Shown one piece after another: positions 5,612 to 63,559 of a DNA stretch of 64,000 bases. Numbering within the stretch: position 1 is the stretch's first letter; every line of letters starts with the position of its first letter. The DNA comes from Sedimentisphaerales bacterium (GTDB taxonomy: Bacteria; Planctomycetota; Phycisphaerae; Sedimentisphaerales; SM23-30), in contig CAXXFK010000021.1 in assembly GCA_963663965.2 (NCBI GenBank), positions 64,001 to 128,000 of the forward strand. The letters run 5' to 3'. The notes under the pieces were generated by a model. That model was given only the letters and a program-made list of their open reading frames with translations, was not told the DNA's origin and ran no database searches. A program made the position numbers and the translations under genes.

Positions 5612-7036
5612 TTACCAGGTCTCCGTCACTATAAACTTAATCACATGCTCGGAATCAGGGATCGTCTTGATCGTAAACCGGGCGGTCGTTGCGTCGATCT
5701 TTTCATAATCGATATTATTCGAACTGATAACCCAGGTTCGATTTTCCATGAATTTTTCATCGACACAAACCGAAACTGTTTCAGTCTTACGGTTTTTGAT
5801 CGTTATTTCCCGCGTGGTCTGACGCCAGCCAGTCCGGGCTTTCTGATCCACGGATTTCTGTTCACCCACAATGTCGAACGCGTCCCCGATATAAAGTTTC
5901 ACCTTCTCCTCACGCGGGGTATGATCGATACTGTCTTCACCAACAAATTCCAACGCATCATCGGCCGGATCCTTCTTAAAAGTCCGGATTTTACCTGCCG
6001 GTAACGCGATACCCAGGCCATATGTCTCCTTATTATCGAACTCAAACATGATCTTAACCTTGTTTTCGCGGTTGCGCACCAGCCATGGATCAATCGACGT
6101 TTCATAAATATACCTTTTTTCCACCGGAATATCATGTACCGGTTCAATGAATTCGATCTGCTTGGTCTGGTTATTATTCAAGGTGCTGGCCCGGCCCAGG
6201 GTATACATATGGTAATCCATAAAGGCTTTCTCTTCGAATCCCGCCGGAGCGGCTTCCGGTTCCGCCATCATCATTAATTCGGTCCGGGCTCGACGGGTCA
6301 TGATTGGCGGACTGATCCGTCGAACGTTACCGGCAATCAATTTCACTTTTGCGTCCTGATAAGCGGCTCCACTTCGATTATCGATCGTAACCCAGCCGGT
6401 CAGATCCAGCGCTTTCTCATTGTCGGATATAATCGCGGTATAGTCCGCCTTCCAACTCATTCCCGTCGCCGTATAGGTAATCTGGCAAGGCTGAGCGCCG
6501 GCCAGCTTGCTCTGTGCCAGCCAGACCAGCGTCGGCCGCGTGATTAAATCCTCCGGCCGCTTTTCCAGCATGATGCGTTCCACACTGTCCCGGTTCACTA
6601 TTTCGATCATACCCGACACGGCGTTCTGGATTATCAAATCCGAACCGATCGCGGCATTCAGGATCCCCGATATCTGATTCGGGTTTCCCTGGCCACTGCC
6701 TTTCACCCAGATGTTTACTCTTTTATCGATATATCGCTTCAGTAAACTATCGGTATTGACCAGATCATATTCATAATTCTGTTCCAGAATACTTACCTGA
6801 TCAGGCTTGTTCAAACATTTGAAACTCACACTGGTTGGATCGATCGTCGCCGCCACATCGGTAAATCGTAAAGTATTCAGACCGCTTTTTAACTCCAGAG
6901 ACCGATTGTCACGAATGACGGCAAAATTATCGTTATAGACAGTGATGGCAACCGAATCACGTTCACCGGTCGCCCCTGCCACGCTGATCATGATCGCGAT
7001 AAGAAATCCAAATAGATACTGCTGTCCGGTTTTCAT
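5612..7036 (-). CDS. DUF4139/DUF4140-type secreted protein
   Basis: ITVYNDNFAVIRD, EQNYEYDL, SWKADY, GWVTIDNRSG, FVGEDSIDHTP. Start placed at MKTGQQ, which follows an AAGGAG RBS. Confidence 0.8.
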   Translation of the reverse strand: MKTGQQYLFGFLIAIMISVAGATGERDSVAITVYNDNFAVIRDNRSLELKSGLNTLRFTDVAATIDPTSVSFKCLNKPDQVSILEQNYEYDLVNTDSLLKRYIDKRVNIWVKGSGQGNPNQISGILNAAIGSDLIIQNAVSGMIEIVNRDSVERIMLEKRPEDLITRPTLVWLAQSKLAGAQPCQITYTATGMSWKADYTAIISDNEKALDLTGWVTIDNRSGAAYQDAKVKLIAGNVRRISPPIMTRRARTELMMMAEPEAAPAGFEEKAFMDYHMYTLGRASTLNNNQTKQIEFIEPVHDIPVEKRYIYETSIDPWLVRNRENKVKIMFEFDNKETYGLGIALPAGKIRTFKKDPADDALEFVGEDSIDHTPREEKVKLYIGDAFDIVGEQKSVDQKARTGWRQTTREITIKNRKTETVSVCVDEKFMENRTWVISSNNIDYEKIDATTARFTIKTIPDSEHVIKFIVTETW

Positions 7037-7109
7037 AACTAACTCCTTACTGAAAATACAGTTACAATACACTATATCATAGTATCGAACGATACCCTTT
7101 TCAAACTTT

Positions 7110-7143
7110 AGGGTACCTCTAAAAATTGTTTTAGAGGTGCCCT
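7110..7143. repeat. Palindromic dispersed element, copy 1 (REP/MITE-like or operator)
   Basis: AGGGTACCTCTAAAA-ATTG-TTTTAGAGGTGCCCT, with 14/15-bp inverted arms. Related copy at 41114-41146. Confidence 0.65.
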
Positions 7144-7247
7144 TTGTAATCTTTTAGATGTTTTACCCCCACAAAAGTATGCAATATAAATGTAAAAACT
7201 CCCCTTTATAGTATAGTAGCAAAACCGTTATTTTTGGAGATATTGAC

Positions 7248-8636
7248 ATGAATAAACAAATTTTCGTGATCTTATTAGCTTTGGGCACCCTGGTTTTCAG
7301 TGCAGAAAATGATAAAATTAAACCAAAAATGCTCGATATCTGGCCTGAAAATCCCGCTTACTGGTCTTATGACAACAAGCCGGTCCTGCTGATTGGCGGT
7401 AGTGACGATGACAACCTCTTCCAGCATCCCAAATTAAAAGAACAACTCGATCTGCTCAAAAATTGCGGCGGGAACTACATCCGCAATACCATGAGTGCCC
7501 GTAATGATCGCGGCTGGGAGGTCCAGGCCTTCTTAAAGCTGGACAATGGCCGCTACGATCTGGAACGCTGGAATCCGGAGTATTGGCAACGGTTCGAAAA
7601 TATGCTCAAATGGACTGCCGAACGTGACATTATTATACAGATCGAAGTCTGGGCCACCTTCGATTATTATCGCGAACCCTGGGCTGCCAATCCTTTTAAT
7701 CCCAGGAATAATATCAATTACACCCCCGAGACCTCCGGCCTGCCTGTTGAAGTCAACTCTCATCCAACCCGGACGGAAAACAACTTTTTCTGGTCTGTCC
7801 CCAAAGAACGCAACCAGAAAACCGTACTGAAATATCAAAAACAATTCGTCGACAAAATACTCTCCTATACCCTCTCTAGAGGTAACGTGCTCTATTGCAT
7901 GGATAACGAAACCTCTGTCACTCCCGAATGGGGCTACTACTGGTCCGATTATATCCGCAACCGGGCCCGGCAGGCCGGCGTCAAGGTCCATACTACCGAA
8001 ATGTGGGACAACTGGAACCTGGCAGACAAACAGCATAATCCATCCTTCGATCATCCCGAAATTTACTCATTCGTCGATATCTCTCAGAACAACCATCAAA
8101 AAGGCCAGCAACATTGGGATAACGCCCAGAAACAGCGCGCCCGTATTGCGGATCATATCCGTCCTTTGAATAACGTCAAAATCTACGGAGCCGATACCGG
8201 CCGGTTCGGTAACAGCCAGGACGGCCAGGAACGGTTCTGGCGCAATATCTTCGGCGGCCTTGCTTCCGCCCGGTTCCACCGCCCCGATTCTGGACTTGGA
8301 TTAAGTGAAATCGCCCAGGCCAATATCCATAGCCTCCGCCAACTCACCGACCGGATGGATTTCTTTCATTGCCGGCCACATAATGAACTTCTAGCGGACC
8401 GTCAGGATAACGAAGCCTATTGTATCGCGCAACCCGGCCGGGAATATGCCGTCTATTTCCCTCAGGGTGGCCAGGTTCAATTGAAACTGGACCGTTCCCA
8501 ACCGGTTTCCATTCATTGGCTGGATATTGCCAAAACAACCTGGCAAAAACCAATCCACAACCAATCAGGGAACACAATCAACCTCAAATGCCAGAACAAT
8601 CAGAGTTGGGCAGTCCTGGTCCAGATCAACGAATGA
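7248..8636 (+). CDS. Secreted putative glycoside hydrolase (TIM-barrel, clan-A-like) with C-terminal beta-sandwich (putative collagen-binding-type domain)
   Basis: Signal peptide; YDLERWNPEYWQR; NVLYCMDNE (NE acid/base-like); C-terminal AYCIAQPGREYAVYFP...W. Confidence 0.6.
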   Translation: MNKQIFVILLALGTLVFSAENDKIKPKMLDIWPENPAYWSYDNKPVLLIGGSDDDNLFQHPKLKEQLDLLKNCGGNYIRNTMSARNDRGWEVQAFLKLDNGRYDLERWNPEYWQRFENMLKWTAERDIIIQIEVWATFDYYREPWAANPFNPRNNINYTPETSGLPVEVNSHPTRTENNFFWSVPKERNQKTVLKYQKQFVDKILSYTLSRGNVLYCMDNETSVTPEWGYYWSDYIRNRARQAGVKVHTTEMWDNWNLADKQHNPSFDHPEIYSFVDISQNNHQKGQQHWDNAQKQRARIADHIRPLNNVKIYGADTGRFGNSQDGQERFWRNIFGGLASARFHRPDSGLGLSEIAQANIHSLRQLTDRMDFFHCRPHNELLADRQDNEAYCIAQPGREYAVYFPQGGQVQLKLDRSQPVSIHWLDIAKTTWQKPIHNQSGNTINLKCQNNQSWAVLVQINE

Positions 8637-8648
8637 CCGCCTGACAGG

Positions 8649-10397
8649 CTAAACCATCTGTTGTCGATGGGATGAAACTGACACGACCAGACCAATCACG
8701 CTGGCAATGGCAAATAGCGTCGCCGCGAAAATCCCCATGACCTTCGCCGAACCGGGATTGATCACCGCCAGTACCGCCATCATCACGCCACAAATACCAA
8801 TACTCCATGCCACCACCAAAGCCGGCAGTCGACTGGCCCTGACTTGCCCACGGCTCTCCAGTAGGGTTTCCTCCGCGGCCAGTTGCTCAATGCGGACATA
8901 ACCCGGATCCACTCGTGAGCCCGAAACGACCTGGATAATCCCCAATATCACCAACGGCAAGATGACGCCCGTAAATGTCTTCATCATCGACATGTGAGCC
9001 TGAATCCACTCAGCCCAACCCGCCAGCGCCGGTATTGAAGCCAGAAACCCTCCCTGGTCCAGGCCAAACCGAACGATAAATCCAACAGCAAATCCTATCC
9101 CGGCCGTTACCCATACCGCCATGCGATTCACCCGGCGACTGAATACACCCCATATTGTCGGCGCTAGTAATGAAACGCACATAATCTCGGTAATCGAAAC
9201 AACCACCTTTTCAGCTCCGCCCATTACCGGGATCAACACGGCGATAACAATCAGGAATCCACCCAGTAATATTGTAAACCATCGCCCTGCCGCAACCATC
9301 TGCGTATCGCTTGGGATAACGCGACGCATGGGACGATAGATGTCGTTGGTAAGCACCCCGGAAAATACATTCAATTGCGAACTGACCATACTCGCCGTCG
9401 CTGAGAACATCGCCGCCAGCATCAATCCAACCATCCCCGGCGGCAAGACGCTTTTACAGGACAGAATATACGCGTTCTCCGCCAGCAACCGAATCTCATC
9501 GTCAGATGCCCCCTCCGGGATGGGCGACTGGATCCGCCACAACATCGGCGGCAACAGCCACAACAATGGACTTAATAAATAAAGACCGCCAAAAAGATAC
9601 GTACTCTTACGCGCGTCACGGGCGCTGGGCACACAGATAAACCGCTGGACAAAGGCCCACTCCGCCCCGATCATAAAAAAGTGGATCGCGCACCAACCCG
9701 CCAGAAAAAACCAGGTGTATTCTCCGCCAATCGGCTTGAAAAACCCATCCGGCGCCTGATGGATAAAACGGCTCACCCCGCCTACCTTGATAAATGCCAG
9801 CGGCACCACAAATAAAACCGCCAGGTTCAACACAATAAACTGCAAGACATCGGTCATCAAAACCGCCCACAACCCGCCAAACATGGTATATAAAACAACA
9901 ACCCCGCCAAAGAGAACGATGGCAGAATTCAATCCCGCCGAAGAAAACTCCCCGTTGGTCAACAATGCCATGAAAATTGTACCCAGCGCGTAAAGCGACC
10001 CGGCAGTCGTGATGATCCGGAAAGTCATCATAAACCAGGTATAAAAATGTAACGCTCCCTTGCCATACCGTTGCTGAATAAACTCTGCCGGTGTCTTAAT
10101 GCCAAGCTGCTTCCATTTCCCGGCAATGAAATATCCTACCAATAACGCTGCAACGCCATACATCAGGTTAATGGCGACCGCTACCATACCATACTTATAC
10201 GCGATCCCTCCCCAGACCACAAAAGTATTCGCCGAAAACATGGTCATGAACGCGCTCAATCCGCTGGTCCACCAGGGCGACTGACCGCCCGCCGCAAACA
10301 TATCGGCAGCGCTCTTGTTCTTGCCGGTAAACAGCATCCCCACCGCGATTATCCCTAGTAAATAACCAATGAGCACCACATAATCGGAAGTATGCAT
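8649..10397 (-). CDS. Sodium:solute symporter (SSS family), probably for a sugar
   Basis: Many TM segments; SPWWTSGLSAFMTMFSANTFV, YTMFGGLWAVLMTDVLQF, GLMLAAMFSATAS. Confidence 0.9.
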   Translation of the reverse strand: MHTSDYVVLIGYLLGIIAVGMLFTGKNKSAADMFAAGGQSPWWTSGLSAFMTMFSANTFVVWGGIAYKYGMVAVAINLMYGVAALLVGYFIAGKWKQLGIKTPAEFIQQRYGKGALHFYTWFMMTFRIITTAGSLYALGTIFMALLTNGEFSSAGLNSAIVLFGGVVVLYTMFGGLWAVLMTDVLQFIVLNLAVLFVVPLAFIKVGGVSRFIHQAPDGFFKPIGGEYTWFFLAGWCAIHFFMIGAEWAFVQRFICVPSARDARKSTYLFGGLYLLSPLLWLLPPMLWRIQSPIPEGASDDEIRLLAENAYILSCKSVLPPGMVGLMLAAMFSATASMVSSQLNVFSGVLTNDIYRPMRRVIPSDTQMVAAGRWFTILLGGFLIVIAVLIPVMGGAEKVVVSITEIMCVSLLAPTIWGVFSRRVNRMAVWVTAGIGFAVGFIVRFGLDQGGFLASIPALAGWAEWIQAHMSMMKTFTGVILPLVILGIIQVVSGSRVDPGYVRIEQLAAEETLLESRGQVRASRLPALVVAWSIGICGVMMAVLAVINPGSAKVMGIFAATLFAIASVIGLVVSVSSHRQQMV

Positions 10398-10418
10398 GAA
10401 TTCCTTTCTAAAAAGGGA

Positions 10419-12908
10419 TCAGCGGGTAACTACTCGCAACTGGTCACCAGTTCGTTCTGGAATAATCATAACCGATTTCATCATAAAGCCATAGCCATAA
10501 CCCAAACGTATCGGACGTCGTCCGCCAATCACAATCAGGTCATTATTTTCTCCCCCTTGTGTCGAAAACGTAACGCTACCGGAATAACAGCCTGGTTCCC
10601 GATCCGCTGCCAGATTGCAAATCCGAAATTCTCCACGCCCGGATTCAACAACAAGCGGCAACACGGACACCGATCCATCAAAACCAACCGGCGCTTTCAC
10701 CCGGATTGTGACAGTCTGTCCGGGCTCAAGAGAGTCCAGCCGCCGGCCGCTTTCTGGATCAACAATTTCAACCTTCGTATCGTACTGACAGGTATACGCC
10801 AGCCCCACATTTAATGCAGCATTAAAAGCCGTCCAGCCTTCCGGATGCCGGAAATCTCCTGTTGGATCGAATGGATAATGCTCCGTGGCGCAGGTTGAAC
10901 TGATCGTACCGCGCACCAGTTCCAGCCGGGCACAGGTGTTATCAGGAAACTTCTTGGGCCAGCCTCGTTCCACCCCCCAGAAATCTTTGGGGCCTCGATG
11001 GGCGCTATGCGCCCCCAGTGGATTCCGGCCAAACAGATCATCCCAATGCCCCGCGGCAATCTCTTCCAGACGATGGGCCTTGACTGGATCATCAATCACC
11101 GAAGCAGTCGCCAGACAAAGAGCCGGAAACGCCGCGACATTACCCGGTTCATTCCAGCCGGCGCCGCCATGCGAACCGGCCGTAAACCGGGGCAAAGTCC
11201 ATTCGATATCATCATAGCGGCGGAAATCCCACATATTATCCGATCGCGCGATCATGATATCCACCCATTGTTTGATCTTATCACGCAAACCCTCCGGCGC
11301 CTGACGCGGATAATCCCGCAAAAACAGGATCAGACCCGTCATCAGCTTATGTTCACTCATACGTTGCCCTTTTGTGGTAACCGGATCATTAAAATCCACC
11401 TGATCGATCACCCACCGGGTCTGCGCGGCCGCCGCCTGAATAAACCGTTCCGCGTCCTCCCGGCCTTCGCGCCGGGCCACTCGCGCCATCAACAGATTCG
11501 GCATAATACTATGTCCGGGGCAATGGCGACCTTTATAAGTGCCAATTGTTTCAATCACTTCAAACAGACCGGCTTTTTCCCACTGTTCAAAAGCAAAATC
11601 ACGCGCCTGCCGATAAAACGCGTTACTGAAATACGGTTTAAAATAAGCATAGCCATAAAGAAAATAAGCAAACTGCTCTACTGTCTGGGCATGGATTTGT
11701 TCCGGTAACGGATCACTCGATGGATCACGCGTAGCGGGATCCATTAAATAATACCCAATCCCCCAGTGGATCAGTTTCATGATATCCGGTACCTGATCAC
11801 CCACCGGAGGATCCAGTTCAGTAAAATAACGCCGGGTTGCCTCCATCACATCTTGATCATTTGGCGCTCGAACCAGCTTGAAATCATCCGCCAGAAATTT
11901 CGCCTTATCCGTTTCATAATTAATTTCGATCGGGGCATGCTCAAAAAATGCCGGATTGGCCAGGTACATCAATATCAGCGAAGGCACTTCATAACTGTAA
12001 TACGTACCATCTCGCCATGGACTTCCACCGTACGCCGAGGGATGTGTTCCAATGACACTGCGGCAATCAACCATAAACCGCAAAGCCGGCTCCAGACTTG
12101 CCTGCTCCATCATGAACGGACGAATCACAAACGGATCGGATTGTCCTGTCTTCAAATTTCCACCAGATACAACTACACAATATTCCTGCTCTCCGTTATC
12201 CGGTTGAAAATCGCTGAAATCACCCAATCCCTTATAGACTCGTCCCTGATAAACCGCTCGATTGGTTTTAACTTCAACGACACTGAAATCAGCCTCCCCT
12301 TCCACCAGCGGCGCGGTAAAACGCTTGGGCCCATTCAAATCATAACCGCTCTGGTTGACAAACACAAAATACGTGGTATACTCCGGCTTTGGCTTGGGTC
12401 CGCTCTTCATCACCGACTCATAACTCGCCGCCGGCGCCAATACGCGTACCTCCGCTACCCGGGCAATCCCATCATCGTTAATCACGAGCCGGATCTTGTC
12501 CGATTGAATCGCAGGCTTAATGATAAACTGTAATCCCGCCTGGGTATTCGACTGCCCACTCGCATCAGCAATCCTGCGCCACTGTGTGCCATCCCAGAAC
12601 TCAAACCGGAAATTTGAGACAGGATCCACCCATTGATCGTTCTCTTTCCACCCACTCGCCAGTTGCAGACAGCCAATCTCAACTTTTCTGCCCAGATCGA
12701 GTGTTATCATATGCGGTCCATTGCTTTTCTCGCTCAGCCAGCGACTGTCGTTGGCAACCTGATTATCGATCGCCTTTTGGGGCTGATACGGCTCCTGATA
12801 AACCGAGCTGGCCGTCACTACCGCATGCAAAGCGTAATTAACCGGTTCGTCAGCCCGACTCTGTGTTACCATCACCAGCATCACAACTAAAATTAATAGC
12901 CGCCTCAT
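10419..12908 (-). CDS. Secreted protein with discoidin/CBM32-like domain, Ig-like domain and probable (alpha/alpha)6 glycosidase-like domain
   Basis: Signal peptide; N.AL...VTASS...KAID...SRWLS...ITLDLG (F5/8 type C); VFVNQSGY (GH9 N-terminal Ig-like); helical catalytic-type region with FGRNP. Confidence 0.6.
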   Translation of the reverse strand: MRRLLILVVMLVMVTQSRADEPVNYALHAVVTASSVYQEPYQPQKAIDNQVANDSRWLSEKSNGPHMITLDLGRKVEIGCLQLASGWKENDQWVDPVSNFRFEFWDGTQWRRIADASGQSNTQAGLQFIIKPAIQSDKIRLVINDDGIARVAEVRVLAPAASYESVMKSGPKPKPEYTTYFVFVNQSGYDLNGPKRFTAPLVEGEADFSVVEVKTNRAVYQGRVYKGLGDFSDFQPDNGEQEYCVVVSGGNLKTGQSDPFVIRPFMMEQASLEPALRFMVDCRSVIGTHPSAYGGSPWRDGTYYSYEVPSLILMYLANPAFFEHAPIEINYETDKAKFLADDFKLVRAPNDQDVMEATRRYFTELDPPVGDQVPDIMKLIHWGIGYYLMDPATRDPSSDPLPEQIHAQTVEQFAYFLYGYAYFKPYFSNAFYRQARDFAFEQWEKAGLFEVIETIGTYKGRHCPGHSIMPNLLMARVARREGREDAERFIQAAAAQTRWVIDQVDFNDPVTTKGQRMSEHKLMTGLILFLRDYPRQAPEGLRDKIKQWVDIMIARSDNMWDFRRYDDIEWTLPRFTAGSHGGAGWNEPGNVAAFPALCLATASVIDDPVKAHRLEEIAAGHWDDLFGRNPLGAHSAHRGPKDFWGVERGWPKKFPDNTCARLELVRGTISSTCATEHYPFDPTGDFRHPEGWTAFNAALNVGLAYTCQYDTKVEIVDPESGRRLDSLEPGQTVTIRVKAPVGFDGSVSVLPLVVESGRGEFRICNLAADREPGCYSGSVTFSTQGGENNDLIVIGGRRPIRLGYGYGFMMKSVMIIPERTGDQLRVVTR

Positions 12909-51172: not shown

Positions 51173-52495
51173 ATGAACAACAACAAACTCAGTTCCAGCC
51201 TCGAAGACTACCTTGAAACCATCTACCGGCTCTGCCAGGATGATGACACCGCCAACGCCAACCAGATCGCCCAGACCCTCAATGTCAGCAAAAGCTCCGT
51301 CACCTGGGCCCTCAACCAGCTCTCCGAAAAAGGCCACATCCAGTACACACCATACGAACCCATCCGCCTCACCGATGCCGGCCGTCAGGAAGCCCGCCGC
51401 CTGCTCAACCGCCACCTGCTCATCAAAGACTTTCTCCAGCGCATCCTCGGCATCGATGAAAATCTCGCCGAAGAAAACGCCTGCAAAATGGAACATGTCA
51501 TGGACCGCGATGTCCTGGAACGCATGGGCCGCTTCTCCCAATTCATCGACGCCTGCCCCCGCGCCGGCCAGGAATGGCTCAACAGTTTCCGTTTCCAGTG
51601 CGAAGAAGGCCGCCTCCCCGAAAAATGCCCCGAATGCATCCGGCAGATCAATATCAATCAGCCACCAACTGTCTCAGATAACAATGAGACATCCACCCTG
51701 CCAGAACCACTCCCCAAACAAACCAAAGACCGCGATCACCTCCTGATCGACCGCCTCAAAGTCATCCTCGCCGATCAGGGCGAACCACTCACCGATCAGC
51801 AAATAATAATAGCAGAATCATTTATGAATGATGAGCGCCACCTCACCCTCGACGAACTCCTCCAGAAAACTCACCTGTTCGATAGCACCATCACCCCCAA
51901 CGATATCCAGACCGTTCTCGATCTGCTCTGCGAATACCGCCTCGCCCGGGAAGCCCGTTTCGGCGACCAGATTATCTACGAACATTTCCATCCCGAATCC
52001 CACCACGACCACTTTTACTGCCTCCAGTGCGGCGCTATCGAAGAGTTTTTCGATCCCCGCATCGAATCACTCCAAAACGAAAACGCCCGCAACAGCTCAT
52101 TCCGACCCCTGCAACATACCCTCAACATCATGGGCGTCTGCTCTCAGTGCCTCCAGCTCGAATCTCAGAGCCGCACCCTCGCCCAGTGCCGCCAGGGCGA
52201 ACGGGTTCGCATCGCCCGCCTGCTCGGCGACCGCGCCACCCAAGGCCAACTGGTCGCCATGGGACTCAACCGCGGCGCCCAGATCGAAATTCTCAACGAC
52301 AACTGCGTCAACGGCGGTATGATCCTGCTGGTCCACGGCACCCGCCTGATGCTCGACAAGTCCATGATCCAGCAAATACGCATCCGGGCCGCCCGCCCCG
52401 GCGATCCCATACTCTCCGGCGGCCCCTCCCTGCGCCGCCGCCATCGCCACCAGGCCGACCGCCCCGGCCATTGCGACGAAGGCTTCCACTGGTAA
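51173..52495 (+). CDS. Metal-dependent regulator: DtxR/MntR + Fur-like + FeoA fusion
   Basis: EDYLETIY..IAQTLNVSKSSVT..RH..ACKMEH (DtxR); HHDHFYCLQCG..EEF..GVCSQC (Fur); L..MGL.RG..IE (FeoA). Confidence 0.88.
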   Translation: MNNNKLSSSLEDYLETIYRLCQDDDTANANQIAQTLNVSKSSVTWALNQLSEKGHIQYTPYEPIRLTDAGRQEARRLLNRHLLIKDFLQRILGIDENLAEENACKMEHVMDRDVLERMGRFSQFIDACPRAGQEWLNSFRFQCEEGRLPEKCPECIRQININQPPTVSDNNETSTLPEPLPKQTKDRDHLLIDRLKVILADQGEPLTDQQIIIAESFMNDERHLTLDELLQKTHLFDSTITPNDIQTVLDLLCEYRLAREARFGDQIIYEHFHPESHHDHFYCLQCGAIEEFFDPRIESLQNENARNSSFRPLQHTLNIMGVCSQCLQLESQSRTLAQCRQGERVRIARLLGDRATQGQLVAMGLNRGAQIEILNDNCVNGGMILLVHGTRLMLDKSMIQQIRIRAARPGDPILSGGPSLRRRHRHQADRPGHCDEGFHW

Positions 52496-55858: not shown

Positions 55859-56551
55859 GTGCCGGCCGCGCCCCTGGACCACACCCTCAGCGCCCTCATC
55901 TTCGATATGGATGACACGCTCTATCCCGAAGTCGACTATATCGTCAGCGGCTACCGGCTCATCGCCCGCCAACTGGCCCGGCCCGAAGTTGACGCCGACC
56001 AGCTCTACGACGCCCTCTGGGACACCTTCCTCAACGGCCCGCGCGACCGTGTCTTCAATATCGTCCTCGACCAGCTCGGTATCGGCGCCAACCCCCAGCT
56101 CATCGCCGAACTCGTCCAGAAATACCGCTGCCATCGCCCCGAAATCCAGCTCACCGACGACACCCGCCAACTGCTGATCGACCTGCGCCGCCGCTTCCGG
56201 CTCGGCGTCATCACCGACGGCTACCTGCCCGCCCAGAAACTCAAGGCCCAGGCCCTCGAACTGCCCGCCCTCGTCGATCACATCATCTACACCGAAGAGC
56301 TCGGCCGCGACTGCTGGAAACCCAGCCCCCGCCCCTTCCAACTCATGAGCCAGACCCTCGGCTGCCCCCCGCAGCAATGCGCCTACATCGCCGACAACCC
56401 CGCCAAAGACTTCCTCGCCCCCAACCAGCTCGGCTGGCTCACCATCCGCCTCCGCAACGACACCCAGGTCCACACCACCAACCCCGCCCCCCCCGGCGGC
56501 AACCCAAAAATCACCATCGCCGATCTAAATGAATTGAGAACAATGCTGTAA
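55859..56551 (+). CDS. HAD-superfamily hydrolase
   Basis: IFDMDDTLY (motif I), ITDG (II), KPSP (III), ADNPAKD (IV). Confidence 0.9.
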   Translation: MPAAPLDHTLSALIFDMDDTLYPEVDYIVSGYRLIARQLARPEVDADQLYDALWDTFLNGPRDRVFNIVLDQLGIGANPQLIAELVQKYRCHRPEIQLTDDTRQLLIDLRRRFRLGVITDGYLPAQKLKAQALELPALVDHIIYTEELGRDCWKPSPRPFQLMSQTLGCPPQQCAYIADNPAKDFLAPNQLGWLTIRLRNDTQVHTTNPAPPGGNPKITIADLNELRTML

Positions 56552-56555
56552 TCCA

Positions 56556-57680
56556 TTAATTCAGAAAACTACAAATAACCGGATACACCTTAGGCAACTG
56601 ATTTTCAATATTTACTCTCTGCCTAAACATGTCATAGGTATTTCGAATTTTATTTACAATTCTTGGATCATGCAAATCCAGACGATTTAAAGCTTCTCTT
56701 AATTTACTTAAAACAGAATCCATTCCGTATTGTTTGGCAAACGATACGGCTTTTCTTGACAATTCCTCGCCAATTAGAGCTTGAAGCATTTTTATTTCAT
56801 GCTCTTCTATGACTTCGTCATCCAAAATCAAGGCTACTCCTAACCACATTACGGCCATTTCAAAATAGTTTTTTTCCATTTCTGAAAGTTTGCCATCACC
56901 CAACTCGTTAAGTCTTTCTAAAATCATATGATCGACTTCATTAAGCGATATACCCGCTATACCCTGATTAGTAAGTCTGGCATATATCGCTGTATTAGAA
57001 AATTGAATTAAGGCCCATAGTCGTAGCGGTAGACTCGGATGAAGTTGATAAAGTTCCCATTCTTGAGAAGCCCCTTTATCCTTACGATCGAGTTGTTCAA
57101 GAAAACCTTGAATATCGGGCACAATATGCTCAGAAGATAAACCAGAGGCCATCTTTATCTTGACATTTGCGGCAATTACCAAACTTCGGGTAGCTATCAA
57201 ACCTATACGATCTGCTGATATTTCTGAGGCTCTCGAAATAGAAAGATATCTAAGCTTCTCTAATTCGTTTTTATAGTGATTCTCGCCAGACACACCAGGA
57301 TGACCCAAGCCTAGATGTCCCAGCTCATGACCAATAACAAATTGTAGTTCCAATGGTTTCAAAAGATTGACTAATCCACTGGTCAACACAATCAACGGAC
57401 GCTCCTTGATTCCAAAAATCGGGGCAAAAGCATTGGGTGTAGAATCTGGAATAACATACGCCTCCGGTTCCTCCAATAATTGCAGCTGTTGATAAGTGGC
57501 CTTTAGTATGTCATGTAATTTTGGGGTTAACCGACCTGTGACTCGAACTCCTTTTGCCCTCATTTGTGAACCGAATTCTGCCAGCCTTGCCATTGACTCA
57601 GGCTTCTCATTACATCGGTATATATCATCGCTAAATCGAACGGATTCACAGAGCTTAATAAAACTTTCTTTTTCAGACAT
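56556..57680 (-). CDS. Soluble M48-family zinc metallopeptidase with TerB-like C-terminal segment
   Basis: PNAFA, IVLTSGL, VIGHELGH (HExxH), SRASEISADR, HPSLPLR; tail ALILDDEVIEEHE; no signal peptide or TM segment seen. Confidence 0.85.
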   Translation of the reverse strand: MSEKESFIKLCESVRFSDDIYRCNEKPESMARLAEFGSQMRAKGVRVTGRLTPKLHDILKATYQQLQLLEEPEAYVIPDSTPNAFAPIFGIKERPLIVLTSGLVNLLKPLELQFVIGHELGHLGLGHPGVSGENHYKNELEKLRYLSISRASEISADRIGLIATRSLVIAANVKIKMASGLSSEHIVPDIQGFLEQLDRKDKGASQEWELYQLHPSLPLRLWALIQFSNTAIYARLTNQGIAGISLNEVDHMILERLNELGDGKLSEMEKNYFEMAVMWLGVALILDDEVIEEHEIKMLQALIGEELSRKAVSFAKQYGMDSVLSKLREALNRLDLHDPRIVNKIRNTYDMFRQRVNIENQLPKVYPVICSFLN

Positions 57681-58875
57681 TTTGTAAATTGTTTTCCAAT
57701 TTCTTGCGAGTTCGTGTTATTGCCTGGATTCGGAGTTCTGCTTGAGTACGCATCTTTTCTTCCTTATGATTGACTCGAGCGCGCCATTTCTTATATTCAT
57801 TATTTAAAAACTGTATTTTTTCTTTTTCATCAAGGCCCGATGGCATGTCTAATAAAGCCTCGTCTGAAGACTGGTCAAACATCGAAACCGCAAAATGTTT
57901 ATCTTGAAATTCTCTTGCCAATTCATCGGGAATATCCAGTATTTCTGCCAAATGTTTCAATACATCCCGCTCTGATTCCTGCACTTCTTCATCGGCAGCT
58001 ATTATCCGCACGGCCAATTCGTAAGCGGCATGTGCATCACTTTTTCCTCCAGCTTCTTTGAGTTCACTACACGCTGATTCGATGGCAACATGGCTATCTA
58101 AGGCGTTCGCCTTATGCTCGACAAGCGTTGTCTTAAGTATATTATTGACTTCATTTTTAATTCGTTCAGGGTCTTTAAGACGGGCAAATTGCTCTGCAAA
58201 ATAATTGCGAATAACTGCTGTTTCGCGCTTATCGATATAGCCATCCGAAGCGCTGACAGCAATTGCGATTCTTGCAATTTTACTATTGATATCAATGCTA
58301 CGCTGTTCATACTCCATATAACCGTATTCTTTTTGTATATAGGTACGGGTTGCAGAACCAGCCTTTATAATTCGATCCGAATCGCCTTCAGTGACGGCTA
58401 CATAAATTTTTAGTTTTCGTTCTCCTCTTTTGGGCATAATCAATGCCTCGGGAGGAAACGCAATAACCGGCATATCTTCAAACGAAGTGATTAAGTATGG
58501 CATTTTACTTTCATAATGACCACTAAAAAAACCGTGTTCATTAGCCAGATCCGGAATTGTACATAAAACGGGTAATTTTTCATCTTCATCGGAGTCACTG
58601 ATATCTATTAAATAAAATTGGATTTGGCAAGGATAGTTTTGGGATGGCACCAAACAGGTACCACTTATAGTTACTTTATGACAAGGCAATTTCTCCCCAT
58701 CTTTAGTTTCAATACTGCTTTCGAACAGCTTGACTTTGAGATCATTATCCAATTCTTTTTTTAAATCTAATAATTTGGAATTGGCTTCCTGCTTTGTTTT
58801 CTCATCTTTGGAATCTTTAACCGCAGAATAAATACAAAATATTACGAAAAGCACTATAAAAATTACCCATCCCAT
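57673..58875 (-). CDS. Membrane-anchored TerB-domain protein with degenerate J-domain-like C-terminus (DjlA-like layout)
   Basis: N-terminal TM helix; AVSASDGYIDKRE and IIAADEEVQESE TerB motifs; tail ALLDM...EYKKWRARVNHK...QAIT without HPD. Confidence 0.75.
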   Translation of the reverse strand: MGWVIFIVLFVIFCIYSAVKDSKDEKTKQEANSKLLDLKKELDNDLKVKLFESSIETKDGEKLPCHKVTISGTCLVPSQNYPCQIQFYLIDISDSDEDEKLPVLCTIPDLANEHGFFSGHYESKMPYLITSFEDMPVIAFPPEALIMPKRGERKLKIYVAVTEGDSDRIIKAGSATRTYIQKEYGYMEYEQRSIDINSKIARIAIAVSASDGYIDKRETAVIRNYFAEQFARLKDPERIKNEVNNILKTTLVEHKANALDSHVAIESACSELKEAGGKSDAHAAYELAVRIIAADEEVQESERDVLKHLAEILDIPDELAREFQDKHFAVSMFDQSSDEALLDMPSGLDEKEKIQFLNNEYKKWRARVNHKEEKMRTQAELRIQAITRTRKKLENNLQNV

Positions 58876-60419
58876 TATTCTATCTCCAAGTCATCAAAAT
58901 CAGCTTCTACCTCTTCAACGAGTTGTTGAGCTCGTAAAGCGTCAGCAGATTCAAGCGTTTTTATCTTACCGGTTTCGACATCTTTAAATTCAAAGTTCAT
59001 TTGACCATTGACATCATAGGAATAGGTCACCTCAATTGGACATCCTGGTGGCCTGCCTTCGGGAAGTTCCAAAGATTCATCTATCAGTATATTGACAAAT
59101 TCCGGATCTGGATCTTCCCCTTGAGTAACACTACAGTCAATTGCAGTCTGATTATGGTATCGTGTGTAATAGGTTTTACTTTTCTTGGCTGGTATTGGTG
59201 TATTTTTAGATATAATAATATCGTTTCTAAGCATATCTCTGCCACCTACATCACAAACCACATATGTCCCAAGGCTGTGTGCAGTCACATCCTGTAATTT
59301 TGTACGACTGATGATGGCTGCTGCCTGTGGAGTCAATTCAGTAAGTCCTTTCTGATGCATCAAAAAACCGGCTTTGATAGCTGCTCCCAAGGCTACCGCC
59401 TCATCCGGATTTACATAGCTGATTGGCTCCTTGCCAAATTTGGCTTTCAGCATTTGTTGGACAGCCGGGATACGACTGGAACCGCCCACCAGCAGCACTT
59501 CATCAATGCCGCCCGGTTCTAAACTGGCAGCTTCCAGGGCATTTTCTACTAACATCTGTGTTCTCATAACCTCATCCGATATCAGTTTTTCAAAAGTGGC
59601 TCGCTGGACATCGACGACAATCATATTCGCACCCCAATTGGGGCGACATTGTTCCTGACTTGTTTTAGATAGCCCTTTTTTGACAGTTTCGCTTAGATCT
59701 ATTAGATTTAGCCAGTCACCATTTTTTTCATCTTCTTTAATAGAGATATTTTTTTCTTCCAGAAATTTTTGAGTCAGAAACCGAGCTAACCGAATATCCA
59801 AATCGCATCCGCCTAATTTATGATCCCCTTCTGAGGCGATTATTTTTATATTATGAGCATCCTCAACTTGGACGATAGATACATCAAACGTCCCACCCCC
59901 AAAATCATAAACCAATATAGTTCCTGGTCGCCCTCCAGTAGAAGCATAGGTCAATGCCGCAGCCGTTGGTTCATTAATTATTTCAAGTAATTCGAGACCA
60001 GCAAGTCTAGCCGCATTCATTGTTGCCACCCGCCTCGTTTCATCGAAATACGCTGGTACCGTAACAACCGCATATTTTATGTGCCCCAGCCTCGCCTCTG
60101 CATCTTTTCTTAGCTTTTTTAATATGATACTGCTTAACTCAATCGCTGAATATTGCTTGCTATTTACGGCAAACCGCCAATCTGGATCGCCCATTTGGCG
60201 CTTAATCCATTGAACAACCCGATCTGGCTGATGCCCGGCACATCGCTTCGCATGTTCACCAACGATGGTTGTAATATCATCCTGAAAAAAAATCGCGGAT
60301 CGCGTAATACGTTCACCTTCAGCATTCGGCACAATTTCCGGACGTCCGGCCGCATTAATCACGGCCAGTGCTGAATAGGTGGTCCCCAAATCAATACCAA
60401 TACATGGATACGAACTCAT
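58875..60419 (-). CDS. Hsp70-family protein (non-canonical, lacks the helical lid)
   Basis: GIDLGTTYS, IKRQMG, TVPAYF, INEPTAAA, YDFGGGTFDVS, LVGGSSRIP, NPDEAVALGAA, DVTAHSLG; only 514 aa; AGGAG RBS. Confidence 0.93.
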   Translation of the reverse strand: MSSYPCIGIDLGTTYSALAVINAAGRPEIVPNAEGERITRSAIFFQDDITTIVGEHAKRCAGHQPDRVVQWIKRQMGDPDWRFAVNSKQYSAIELSSIILKKLRKDAEARLGHIKYAVVTVPAYFDETRRVATMNAARLAGLELLEIINEPTAAALTYASTGGRPGTILVYDFGGGTFDVSIVQVEDAHNIKIIASEGDHKLGGCDLDIRLARFLTQKFLEEKNISIKEDEKNGDWLNLIDLSETVKKGLSKTSQEQCRPNWGANMIVVDVQRATFEKLISDEVMRTQMLVENALEAASLEPGGIDEVLLVGGSSRIPAVQQMLKAKFGKEPISYVNPDEAVALGAAIKAGFLMHQKGLTELTPQAAAIISRTKLQDVTAHSLGTYVVCDVGGRDMLRNDIIISKNTPIPAKKSKTYYTRYHNQTAIDCSVTQGEDPDPEFVNILIDESLELPEGRPPGCPIEVTYSYDVNGQMNFEFKDVETGKIKTLESADALRAQQLVEEVEADFDDLEIE

Positions 60420-60439
60420 ACCTGATACTCCTAAATGTA

Positions 60440-61141
60440 TTATTTTCGATAAACGGTAACCCGCGCAGGACGTAATACCTTTTCCTCGATTTCACTAACC
60501 TGTTCAATATAACCGCACTTATCAACATGCGCTATGGTATCCGGCACACGCCAGAACCGGGCAGGTTCGGCTTTAAAGGATTCCATATAGTTCATGTCAA
60601 ATACCTCGCCAGGCTGAGGTTCAATAACATCGATATCATGCTTTGCTAATATCTCTCTTACGAATTTTAATAACTCAATATTAAAATTATCTGGCTCGAC
60701 AACCGCCGCTTCCATGGCTTTTACTCTTCGAAACAGCAGGTCGTGTAATTCAAAAAAAGATTCTAAGACATCCATTTTCCCTTGCCTGATATAATCACTC
60801 TCTTGACGAACCAATTTATCTTTAGCCAAATGGACAAATCGGTTGATTTCATCCATTTTATAATCCATACCCAAAACCACCTGTTTCAATTCCATAAATA
60901 CTTCGCCAGCCGCTTTTTTATTTTTAACCGCTTCCTCCGTATTTGCATGATTTGCTTTGATATTTGTTCCCACATCTGCTTTTCCACTAGAAGAAGTGTC
61001 GTTGATTTCTTGTTCACTCGATAGTGGGGCAGATTCCATATTCCCCTCCTGTGATTCTATAGGACTTTGTTTGGTAAGCTCGCCCTCACTATTATCATTT
61101 TCACTGCTATTTTTATTTTCAAGATTTATATCACTGGCCAT
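60440..61141 (-). CDS. GrpE-like nucleotide exchange factor
   Basis: Acidic disordered N-terminus, long helix, GEVFDMNYMES, GY...VLRPARVTV. Start placed at MASDINL; the ORF is open to 61216. Confidence 0.8.
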   Translation of the reverse strand: MASDINLENKNSSENDNSEGELTKQSPIESQEGNMESAPLSSEQEINDTSSSGKADVGTNIKANHANTEEAVKNKKAAGEVFMELKQVVLGMDYKMDEINRFVHLAKDKLVRQESDYIRQGKMDVLESFFELHDLLFRRVKAMEAAVVEPDNFNIELLKFVREILAKHDIDVIEPQPGEVFDMNYMESFKAEPARFWRVPDTIAHVDKCGYIEQVSEIEEKVLRPARVTVYRK

Positions 61142-61921
61142 GTCGTCATCTCTCTGTATTTCAAACACATTTTGAAACCTCGTTATCATCGAATAACACA
61201 ATTGACTCGCAGGCATTTAAAGCTACGAGTTGATGAACTCAATAAATTGCATTTCTTATCCCTAAAATGTTAACAGCCCGTTTTTGCTGCTTTTACTAAA
61301 CACAAAACCTAGATAATCATCACACATATAATCTCCTTAACAAATAACATAGCAAGAAGATAAAATACGATGTAGAATTAATTATGTATTTCGAGGTCAA
61401 GCCAGACAATTATTTTACTATACACAATATCCAGAAAAATATAAAGAAATTTATTCCTAATAATTTCATATTTTCTCCATAATAATACTATGTTTTTTCA
61501 ATATATGGTTTTAATGACTTTAAGTCACATTCGGCAATATATAACACAATATAAAATAAAGCCTTACCGAACCAGCACACCTGTCTAACTCATAGGATTA
61601 GCATGTCCGATATATGCAACAATCTAACTTTATTTCATTGTTAATCACCAAAATTTTGTATTAACCAACTACGATATTTCTTGCTCACTACCCTGCGCCG
61701 AACGCTGGCAGCAAGCCCTGACACCCTGACATAAATCGCCAATCCGGGCCCAACCTCCCAATGCCATCATTCTTCACATCATCCTCAAACATCCCCCCAA
61801 AAAAAACAACAACCCAGGCCACACCATAAAGGCGGCCCGGGTCATTGTTTCCATAAATTGGTTTCCTCTCAATACTTCGGCATGGTAACAAATATATAAA
61901 TACCTGACGGATACATGATCA

Positions 61922-63559
61922 TCAATCCCGCAACCATCTCTCAGAAAGAATGGCATGATCGAACATATCCACAACACCATCAAGATTAAAATCGGACTTT
62001 AAGCGATAGCCGCTTGTTCCCTCCATCTGCCATTCCCGGATAAACAGATCCAGATCCCGCCCATCGACTACCGCGTCGCAGTTACCGTCCGCCACCAGCG
62101 GATTCTCCCACCACAGCATCGCGTAACCGCCCCCCACCGGCAGATACCAGTAATCGTTATTCCCGTCACTGCTGTCACCCACAAAATCGAACGCCAGGTT
62201 CGCCGCGTCCTGCATCTGGGCGGTCGTCAATCCCACTCCCGCTTCACTCACCGAAATCCCCGCCACCTGATAATCCCAGTAGCATCCGGTAATAATATTA
62301 TAACTGCCATAAGACCGCCCTACAAATCCGCCGATCTGCTTCACATCATACTGCCCGGTTACGACACAAGCCGCATAACAATCCACCAGATCCCCGCGGT
62401 CATTATAACCGATCCCGCCGCCAATCTTCTCCGCCGCGTAGCTGGCGTTCACACTGCCAGTCGCCCGGCACCTGCTGATCAGACACTGGTTCACCCCGGC
62501 AATCCCACCCAGGCGGTCCGCGCCATATTTTCCATAAATATCGATCTGCGTACTGCAATCGTAAACAAATCCTTCATTTTCATTCACTCCCACAACCCCG
62601 CCGGCGGTATAATCCCACACGGTAATCATCCCGCGGCTATAACACCGCCTGATAATCCCATTACTCAAGCCGGCAATCCCCCCCGCTTTTTCATAACATT
62701 CCACCGTCACATCGCTGTAACAATCCAGCGCCGTGCTATAGCGCGCCAGTGACCCCACAATCCCGCCGGCCCGTTCTTTGGTCCCGCCGTTGACAGTTCC
62801 CTCAAATTGACAGTTCAGGATATCGTTGTAATCGTTCGCCTCGCCAACAATACCCCCACAAAAACCATTCGACGCATTAACCGTCCCGGCCGCCACGCAA
62901 CCGGCCACTTCTCCAAATTCCATATGCCCGATCACGCCCCCGACATTCTGTTTGCCATCAATAGTCACCGCCGCCGTACACCCGACCAGGGCCCCGCCAT
63001 TACTAAATCCGGCCACCCCGCCTACACTGGGCGCATAACCCGCATCCACCACCCCGCTCACATGACAGTTGACAATCTGCCCTCCCAGGTAATTACTGCC
63101 ATACCCGCAAGCCCCGGCCACACCACCAATCCTCGCGCCGGTATAAATGGAATAGATGGACACGTCCGTCAAATTCAGATTCGCGACAACCCCGCCACTG
63201 CCTATAATCCCAAACAAACCCACATTATCCGCATTGCTCTTCATATGGATGCCAAGGTTCCGGATCGTATAACCGTTGCCGTCGAACATCCCCGTAAACA
63301 CATCCGGTGTACCCGGCGCGATCACCGCGTTGGAAAAAGTCCCATCACTGTTATCGCCCTGACCACTCAGATCCAGATCACTGACCAGCTTGAAACAGGC
63401 GTCATAATCCTGCGTCTGAGCCGCCAGCAACATCAGATCCGCTTCCGATCCAATCAGATAGGGATTGCCGACGCTGCCGCTCCCCCCGGAATACCGGGCC
63501 GGCAAACTGCTCGCCAGAATCAAAACTACCGCTACAATATTTGCTATAGTAATCCGCAT
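61922..63559 (-). CDS. Secreted GLUG-motif beta-helix protein with C-terminal dockerin-like repeats
   Basis: Signal peptide; YSGGSG...PY.I, FTG.FDGNGYTI.NL, repeated xGGxxG (GLUG); DGNCDAVVDGRDL and DFNLDGVVDMFD. Confidence 0.85.
   Translation of the reverse strand: MRITIANIVAVVLILASSLPARYSGGSGSVGNPYLIGSEADLMLLAAQTQDYDACFKLVSDLDLSGQGDNSDGTFSNAVIAPGTPDVFTGMFDGNGYTIRNLGIHMKSNADNVGLFGIIGSGGVVANLNLTDVSIYSIYTGARIGGVAGACGYGSNYLGGQIVNCHVSGVVDAGYAPSVGGVAGFSNGGALVGCTAAVTIDGKQNVGGVIGHMEFGEVAGCVAAGTVNASNGFCGGIVGEANDYNDILNCQFEGTVNGGTKERAGGIVGSLARYSTALDCYSDVTVECYEKAGGIAGLSNGIIRRCYSRGMITVWDYTAGGVVGVNENEGFVYDCSTQIDIYGKYGADRLGGIAGVNQCLISRCRATGSVNASYAAEKIGGGIGYNDRGDLVDCYAACVVTGQYDVKQIGGFVGRSYGSYNIITGCYWDYQVAGISVSEAGVGLTTAQMQDAANLAFDFVGDSSDGNNDYWYLPVGGGYAMLWWENPLVADGNCDAVVDGRDLDLFIREWQMEGTSGYRLKSDFNLDGVVDMFDHAILSERWLRD

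Follow-up and report, generated by a model that had tools for sequence, protein, structure and literature searches.

A conserved, apparently undescribed Hsp70 cassette with a GrpE-like factor, a TerB/J-like adaptor and an M48 peptidase in a Sedimentisphaerales bacterium

Hsp70 systems generally work by a common set of rules, in which a lid traps the client, a J domain bearing the HPD motif triggers ATP hydrolysis, and the co-chaperones are shared housekeeping proteins. Membrane-bound arrangements include DjlA of E. coli, a membrane-anchored class C J-protein composed of a transmembrane (TM) helix, a TerB-like domain and a J domain, and the mitochondrial PAM import motor, composed of mtHsp70, the membrane-tethered J protein Pam18, the J-like protein Pam16, which lacks HPD, and the GrpE homologue Mge1. 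Here, we describe a four-gene cassette on the minus strand at positions 56556-61216 of a 64,000-nucleotide stretch (hereafter the window) of contig CAXXFK010000021.1 (positions 64,001 to 128,000, forward strand) from the Sedimentisphaerales bacterium assembly GCA_963663965.2, which belongs to the Planctomycetota. The four open reading frames (ORFs), all intact, encode a GrpE-like nucleotide-exchange factor, a lidless Hsp70, a predicted membrane-anchored adaptor with TerB and J-like parts (gene 3), and a predicted soluble M48 zinc peptidase (gene 4). Together, they represent a variant form of the Hsp70 system that is conserved and, apparently, has not been described before.

Dedicated Hsp70s are also known from bacterial conflict systems. 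According to the part of the account available to us, the GTPase-centric GAP1-N2 systems of Actinobacteria and Firmicutes share a theme of Hsp70, GrpE and DnaJ, in which some Hsp70s lack the peptide-binding domain and FNIII-repeat proteins are present (Kaur et al. 2020, PMC7159879). From similarly partial sources, lidless DnaK-like domains are fused or linked to caspase-type protease/EACC1 pore modules (PMC12642450), and CnuD of the CoCoNuT systems carries Hsp70-like units of nucleotide-binding domain (NBD) and substrate-binding domain (SBD), with degenerate ATPase motifs, alongside McrBC-type GTPase systems (PMC10542128). As far as these excerpts go, the cassette resembles the GAP1-N2 theme in placing a dedicated Hsp70, a GrpE-type factor and a J or J-like protein in a non-housekeeping operon, but neither a GTPase nor an FNIII protein is encoded in its immediate flanks (hisD, hisC, hisB, HAD and GLUG/dockerin genes), and TerB and M48, both present in the cassette, are not part of the theme in the portion of PMC7159879 that describes it. 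With the EACC1-protease and CnuD units, as partly described, it has in common an Hsp70 NBD and beta-SBD without a lid that is joined with a protease or a defence machine. Unlike in the available descriptions of those units, the cassette has an Hsp70 with invariant ATPase motifs, encodes its M48 protease by a gene of its own, and adds a GrpE-like and a TerB/J-like partner.

The same four genes in the same order were recovered by a search with a profile of the adaptor in metagenome-assembled genomes labelled Dehalococcoidia, Nitrospiraceae and Planctomycetota, and an adaptor relative is present in 12 of the 401 genomes sampled in the phylum, that of the window included. By an exhaustive profile search, the adaptor family comprises 1423, 975 and 634 representative clusters (50% identity) at E<=1e-3, 1e-10 and 1e-30, respectively. 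A word-indexed search returned 6 adaptor homologues only, a figure that reflects limited sensitivity because the exhaustive search found far more. When metagenomes were scanned with the M48 protein alone, 325 relatives were obtained, the best 80 loci of which were examined with custom hidden Markov models. The adaptor gene lies directly upstream of the M48 gene in 60 of 66 loci having at least 600 bp of upstream sequence. Where this sequence extends to at least 1900 bp, 45 of 48 loci contain the Hsp70 gene, and where it extends to at least 3700 bp, 22 of 28 contain the GrpE-like gene; order and adjacency are kept over dozens of loci at about 30% protein identity. Because the same order recurs in three phyla and in most of the 80 metagenome loci, the arrangement is more than chance. 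An earlier note on this DNA, made from the sequence alone, had proposed to look for co-occurrence and conserved order in unrelated genomes, and both are found in the three phyla and the metagenome loci. Among viral contigs, no full-length relative was detected, the nine M48 matches being weak and partial, and tblastn with the adaptor gave no match in plasmid and phage collections. A description of the set of GrpE-like factor, lidless Hsp70, TerB/J-like protein and M48 peptidase was not found in the full-text literature, in agreement with the view of the note that this is not a recognised named system; supplements lay outside the search, as did the 2012 work on Ter systems, which may mention TerB-peptidase or TerB-Hsp70 contexts.

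At the DNA level, the genes form one unit, just as the note had read them: 20 nt, including TAGGAG, separate the stop codon of the GrpE-like gene from the ATG of the Hsp70 gene, the Hsp70 and adaptor genes overlap by 1 nt at 58875, and the adaptor and M48 genes overlap by 8 nt at 57673-57680. For the GrpE-like gene, the frame given in the note stands; its start, 61141, is an internal ATG and an alternative start within a longest ORF that begins at 61216. The AT-richness relative to the his genes that had been noticed by eye is evident in 500-nt windows, the GC content being 0.32-0.46 over 56500-61999 vs 0.56-0.67 in the his genes. The cassette as a whole has a GC content of 0.403, and the low-GC island to which it belongs 0.396, vs 0.516 in the window remaining in either case. 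This island is bordered by the hisD-hisC-hisB-HAD block on one side and by the GLUG/dockerin gene on the other (Table 1). Its upstream AT-rich region of about 700 nt (61217-61921) holds short ORFs only and no convincing gene; at the island borders no tRNA, integrase or meaningful flanking repeat was found, and a scan for promoters and terminators scored no better than shuffled sequences.

Table 1. Coordinates of the cassette genes and the low-GC island in the window, and of the second cassette on contig 36 of the same genome
Feature	Position	Strand	Product or extent	Basis
GrpE-like nucleotide-exchange factor	60440..61216	-	258 aa (longest ORF)	Pfam GrpE
Lidless Hsp70	58875..60419	-	514 aa	Pfam HSP70
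Predicted membrane-anchored TerB/J-like adaptor (gene 3)	57673..58875	-	400 aa	Pfam TerB
Predicted soluble M48 zinc peptidase (gene 4)	56556..57680	-	374 aa	Pfam Peptidase_M48
Low-GC island	56552..61921	.	four genes + ~700-nt AT-rich upstream region	GC profile
Genes of the contig-36 cassette (L024)	6216-7259, 7287-8849, 8892-10286, 10341-11432	all -		

The Hsp70 of the window matches Pfam HSP70 (PF00012) with 362.4 bits over profile positions 2-497 of 599. Against the NCBIfam DnaK equivalogs NF001413 and TIGR02350, it scores 379.7 bits (cut-off 648) and 371.1 bits (cut-off 822.55), and the match stops at about position 492 of 625, short of a full-length DnaK. Its nucleotide-binding domain is complete and is joined by a changed linker to a beta substrate-binding domain; the alpha-helical lid is missing. 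In an alignment with the DnaK of the same genome, all nucleotide-binding motifs are kept and lobe IB carries a deletion; a 12-residue insertion precedes the interdomain linker, which reads KLQD rather than LLLD, and the beta substrate-binding domain is retained, the protein stopping where the alpha-helical lid would start. Because the catalytic residues (D10, G12, T13, K73, E150, D172, G174-G176, T177, D179 and G312-S314) are invariant in 33 Hsp70s of the family, the protein looks like an active ATPase rather than a degenerate one. The canonical DnaK-DnaJ-GrpE triad likewise combines an ATPase with invariant catalytic residues, a beta substrate-binding domain, and partners with a GrpE fold and a J or J-like element; the cassette Hsp70 departs from it in having no lid, an altered linker preceded by the 12-residue insertion, a lobe IB deletion, no conserved HPD-contacting Arg, and a DnaK equivalog score (379.7 bits) far below the cut-off of 648. 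At its C-terminus stands a conserved tail, ...DFDDLEIE in the window (58875-58950) and roughly [ILV]-D-x-F-x-[VI]-[ED] in the family, which could be a docking or pseudo-substrate motif. In six three-gene cassettes without M48, the last residue of the tail is R, K, H or Q, a correlation that comes from a single clade.

The canonical dnaK operon was considered as the identity of the cassette and rejected, both on the Hsp70 score just given and because the housekeeping triad is encoded on other contigs. In this genome of 7.24 Mb and 42 contigs, the canonical DnaK (866 bits) lies on contig 24, the canonical GrpE (136.7 bits) and DnaJ on contig 15, and a second J protein on contig 17, contigs 15 and 17 being the only ones with a match in a six-frame search of the genome with PF00226. 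A separate canonical set, which the earlier note had asked for, thus exists, and its statement that the cassette is not the housekeeping operon holds. The GrpE-like protein of the cassette reaches 37.5 bits against Pfam GrpE (PF01025; cut-off 25.8), with residues 100-255 covering profile positions 13-163 of 165, and it is not a housekeeping GrpE, since it scores far below every NCBIfam GrpE equivalog cut-off. Its N-terminal 95 residues or so are acidic and Ser-rich and contain no hydrophobic segment; the best 18-residue hydropathy in the protein is only 0.58, which indicates that it has no TM segment. Unlike the window copy, 19 of 22 complete GrpE-like ORFs in metagenome cassettes, whose starts were called mechanically, contain a TM-like 18-mer.

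The adaptor is assigned to TerB by Pfam (26.7 bits, cut-off 24.4), and its AlphaFold2 model, built on an alignment of 17 homologues, has a pLDDT of 86.1. In the model, an N-terminal helix is followed by a beta-sandwich (47-181), a helical TerB domain (189-312), a connecting helix, and a hairpin of two helices (350-365 and 373-398), whose loop reads VNHKE in place of HPD. Its first 18 residues or so have a strongly hydrophobic character, with a hydropathy of 2.66 at residue 2, and 43 of 49 family members contain a TM-like segment, giving the DjlA-type succession of an N-terminal TM helix and then TerB. The C-terminal stretch follows the pattern 'LGI..ms.eei...L..EY.KWN.R..H.D...R..A..ml.lI...R', which reads like a J domain, where a helix I of the type 'LGI..s.eeI' would precede a hairpin of helices II and III. 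When the hairpin was compared by hhalign with 20 true J domains, taken from this genome and its relatives, the probability was 69.9% and P was 4.1e-5 over 37 columns, vs P values of 0.61 and 0.16 for the reversed and the TerB-region controls. The hairpin may therefore be remotely related to J domains, and the description of gene 3 as TM plus TerB plus J-like holds at the level of architecture, being backed by Pfam, the model, hydropathy and hhalign. With the complete model of the adaptor, Foldseek returned nothing at E<=1e-3 and otherwise just sandwiches of the Ig or cohesin-like kind; in the ESM Atlas, the C-terminus has DjlA/TerB and DnaJ clusters as neighbours, which score 0.78-0.83, short of the 0.9 mark, and are a lead only.

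Like DjlA, the adaptor thus starts with a TM helix, continues with TerB and finishes with a helix-loop-helix alignable to J helices I-II, and its operon partners are an Hsp70 and a GrpE-type factor. Unlike DjlA, which uses the housekeeping DnaK, it is accompanied in the operon by genes for a lidless Hsp70 and a GrpE-like protein that are both dedicated to it, it contains an additional beta-sandwich of about 135 residues, HPD is not conserved and Pfam DnaJ does not match, and an M48 peptidase is attached to the cassette. The PAM motor offers a parallel, at the level of principle only, for a tethered J or J-like element that keeps an Hsp70 at the membrane together with a GrpE-type factor, and Pam16 is a precedent for a J-like domain without HPD, as in the adaptor. 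In contrast to that motor, to which no homology is evident beyond the protein families in common, the cassette has no translocase gene, its Hsp70 has no lid, and it includes a protease as well as a TerB domain.

A contact between the two proteins is predicted by the pairwise modelling that the earlier note had suggested. With self-made alignments for the Hsp70 (33 sequences) and for adaptor residues 338-400 (49 sequences), the Hsp70-hairpin complex scored 0.73, vs 0.00 for the best of 3 controls; the score is the model's own confidence, and among reference cases 116 of 157 solved complexes attain that mark, as do 2 of 215 mismatched pairs. At least 95% of contacts are common to the runs, and the pLDDT of the partner is 81. 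On the Hsp70 side, the confident interface lies in ATPase lobe II and comprises residues 199-201 together with helix 281-296, corresponding to 217-219 and 303-318 in the numbering of the genome's own DnaK; on the adaptor side, it comprises both hairpin helices and loop residues 368-369. Within the Hsp70 helix, M289, L290 and E292 are conserved in 23, 26 and 29 of 33 family members, respectively. The modelling thus supports, as a prediction, that the adaptor hairpin binds the Hsp70 at a conserved helix of ATPase lobe II.

The product of gene 4 matches Pfam Peptidase_M48 (PF01435) with 66.4 bits and contains an HELGH motif, from which the zinc site H118-E119-xx-H122 is formed together with E153; among 44 homologues, no change is seen at H118, H122 or E153, and conservation of E119 is at least 90%. 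The model (pLDDT 91.4, pTM 0.88) has its best fold matches in HtpX, BepA and ZMPSTE24, with probabilities up to 1.00 and E-values around 1e-2, none of them <=1e-3. The best 18-residue hydropathy is 1.39, a TM-like segment occurs in just 3 of 44 family members, the flanking TM helices of the HtpX type are absent, and the scores are far below the HtpX equivalog cut-offs. Judged from sequence, the peptidase is soluble with its catalytic residues intact. Its C-terminal half folds in the model into a helical bundle (about residues 246-356) that is probably TerB-like, PF05099 TerB being present in 16 of 120 among the M48 homologues listed.

The same genome carries a second cassette on contig 36 that lacks the M48 gene and is made up of a PilM-like gene, a GrpE-like gene (464 aa), a lidless Hsp70 gene (520 aa) and a gene for an adaptor relative (347 aa), in which no TM segment was detected. 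Its GC content is 0.52 vs 0.50 in the flanks, and the three-gene form is found in all six sampled genomes of a sister family (f2), five of which were inspected. In a quick maximum-likelihood tree of 33 cassette Hsp70s and two housekeeping outgroups, the contig-36 Hsp70 groups with the three-gene forms of the order (SH-aLRT 99), whereas the window Hsp70 is sister to the Dehalococcoidia copy (SH-aLRT 97), both lying in a clade with the Nitrospiraceae copy and another one from Planctomycetota (SH-aLRT 96). This grouping with copies from Chloroflexota and Nitrospirota fits horizontal transfer. In a relative of the same family (G093), the hisD-hisC-hisB-HAD block is kept and the cassette is absent. 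Taken together, the tree, the GC content and the cassette-free relative make the window cassette look like a recent horizontal acquisition and the contig-36 cassette look resident, within a three-gene clade that appears vertically inherited. In this genome, a four-gene form that seems newly acquired accompanies a seemingly resident three-gene one. The earlier proposal of a private chaperone unit beside a protease, probably acquired horizontally, is supported.

Regarding function, the reading that we prefer, with its chances evenly balanced, is that the four proteins work as a private membrane-tethered Hsp70 cycle that passes a captured client to the M48 peptidase or gates this enzyme. The adaptor would hold the Hsp70 at the cytoplasmic face of the membrane, and its beta-sandwich and TerB domain would pick the client or sense a ligand; the GrpE-like protein would reset the Hsp70, and the M48 peptidase, recruited possibly via its own TerB-like bundle, would cleave the client being held. 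As to the biological role, we lean towards an accessory, horizontally mobile, membrane-proximal stress/proteostasis module, with anti-phage defence as the main rival. The cassette might also be a protein-sensing immune or stress switch, a doubtful proposal in which the tethered lidless Hsp70 would act as a sensor rather than a folder and license the dedicated M48 protease, the HPD-less J-like hairpin and the TerB ligand sensor detecting a foreign or damaged protein at the inner membrane. What lends interest to these possibilities is that an operon widespread in uncultured bacteria (at least 634 adaptor clusters) keeps an intact ATPase, drops the lid, the HPD loop and the HPD-reading Arg, and supplies a protease, a membrane anchor and an exchange factor of its own. 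If the four proteins cooperate, the cassette would be a compact, transferable chaperone-protease machine and a natural test of Hsp70 coupling without HPD; if it is a defence or envelope-stress system, it would add a principle of protein-level sensing to bacterial immunity.

Several observations weigh against a private cycle that ends in proteolysis. A clade of six cassettes has no M48 gene, so the protease is not obligatory, and 6 of the 66 M48 relatives have no adaptor gene upstream, two of them lying beside STAND/TIR genes instead. The resemblance by hhalign between the M48 C-terminus and the TerB region of the adaptor is weak (E 0.01, probability 4%). The J-like part is affected as well: HPD is found in 1 of 49 adaptors, 26 of 49 have His at its first position, and the window has H-K-E. 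On the Hsp70 side, the Arg of the 'KRIINEP' motif, which we take to be R167 of E. coli DnaK and to pair with the Asp of HPD, is replaced by Glu in the window Hsp70 and retained in only 2 of 33 family members. The H-K-E triad lies outside the confident contacts of the modelled complex, and the predicted binding mode may therefore differ from that of a J domain. An attempt to prove a J domain by sequence failed, in that Pfam DnaJ (PF00226) matched 1 of 12 adaptor C-termini (E 0.012), that of the window going unmatched, a sequence-profile search of the adaptor against the PDB returned designed repeat proteins only and no J domain, and the six-frame search of the genome with PF00226 did not match the adaptor gene. 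Because these sequence tests failed while the profile-profile comparison favours a remote relationship, the hairpin is named J-like rather than a J domain.

Among the alternatives, defence against phages or other mobile elements, the model offered by the earlier note, is possible, although it is probably not the answer: the tethered Hsp70 would sense a foreign or misfolded protein and license M48 to cut a host or phage target, with abortive infection or direct interference as the outcome. Such a role would suit the patchy distribution (12 of 401 genomes), relationships that cross phyla, and the low-GC island around the window copy, and lidless Hsp70-like modules are known from conflict systems, as far as the available parts of PMC7159879, PMC10542128 and PMC12642450 describe them. 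It would also suit the company kept at several loci, where a type II methyltransferase and a type IIG restriction enzyme are directly downstream of the cassette (L089), an MkoA-like helicase-nuclease is nearby (L085, L103 and L109), or SRA-HNH and SNase genes (L068), a DUF3987/Toprim primase of the mobile-element type (L048) or UmuDC (L080) are found; the M48 relatives of L038 stand beside STAND AAA_16-TPR and TIR-kinase proteins. However, none of the four proteins has a significant match in PADLOC-DB 2.0.0, which is dated 2023 and does not cover later systems: three gave none and the TerB protein only PDC-M34B (E 0.0017, 16.3 bits). At E<=1e-8, just 13 of 144 flanking ORFs, from 9 of 30 loci, match PADLOC, a count made with no background control, and most of these matches are at the domain level (kinase, OmpA, trypsin, helicase). 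In the window, the cassette is flanked by genes for histidine biosynthesis and a GLUG/dockerin gene, the neighbourhoods at other loci are of mixed content, and none of the products is an obvious toxic effector. Viral contigs yielded no full-length relative and the plasmid and phage collections no match, and the three-gene form, which all 6 sampled genomes of one family have and which makes up a single clade, looks vertical.

A further alternative is a lineage-adapted housekeeping chaperone serving one membrane process, such as the assembly or extraction of an envelope or pilus client, with M48 as an optional trimmer, in the manner of HscA/HscB for Fe-S clusters or of the mitochondrial PAM import motor. 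In addition to the three-gene form in all six genomes of family f2, the resident paralogue on contig 36 fits this explanation, having a host-like GC content (0.52 vs 0.50), following a PilM-like gene and grouping with the three-gene forms (SH-aLRT 99), as do the best fold matches of the M48 protein, since HtpX, BepA and Ste24 are quality-control or processing proteases, and, in broad outline, the PAM layout of a tethered J or J-like protein, an Hsp70 and a GrpE homologue. Nevertheless, we hold it to be unlikely: the four-gene form is patchy and crosses phyla, the window copy is compositionally foreign, and, because flanking genes vary between loci, no constant client gene is visible. It is highly improbable that the genes are mere neighbours, or a degenerate duplicate of the dnaK operon, without joint function. 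Although the Hsp70, GrpE and M48 families are all common and Pfam scores only just pass the cut-offs for GrpE and TerB, the conserved order and adjacency at about 30% protein identity across dozens of loci already contradict chance, the catalytic residues do not vary, the reading frames are unbroken and overlap translationally, and features specific to the family (the missing lid, the KW motif and the C-terminal tail) are conserved.

Variation of the cassette takes several forms. At L092 (2045-6747), the order is GrpE-Hsp70-M48-adaptor, the last two genes being swapped so that the adaptor gene is downstream of M48, and at L099 (2-1387), an additional adaptor-like ORF lies upstream of the GrpE-like gene. 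Four loci (L064, L076, L102 and L103) have no GrpE-like gene and a longer adaptor of 459-537 aa; in this sub-variant, as also at L085 and L109, a divergently transcribed protein of about 900 aa without a Pfam match is encoded, and an RNase_H_2/SF1-helicase (MkoA-like) protein of about 1000-1140 aa is nearby at L085, L103 and L109. The M48 relatives at L038 (1-11179) and L040 (1-13032) have neither Hsp70 nor adaptor, and are situated between a very large protein and unknown proteins of about 590 aa, adjoining STAND-type ATPases; at L038, the large protein is an AAA_16+TPR protein of the STAND type, and a TIR-kinase-FGE-sulfatase protein is found nearby. In a Planctomycetota single-cell genome (L011), a dGTPase-like protein with HD and HD_assoc domains is encoded at 4011-5471 (-), about 2.5 kb downstream of the cassette and on the opposite strand, and could be either housekeeping or defence-related. 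Elsewhere in the window, a 440-aa ORF at 51173-52495 (+) combines a DtxR-type regulator (Fe_dep_repress and Fe_dep_repr_C), FUR and FeoA in a single protein, an unusual fusion of two iron-regulator families.

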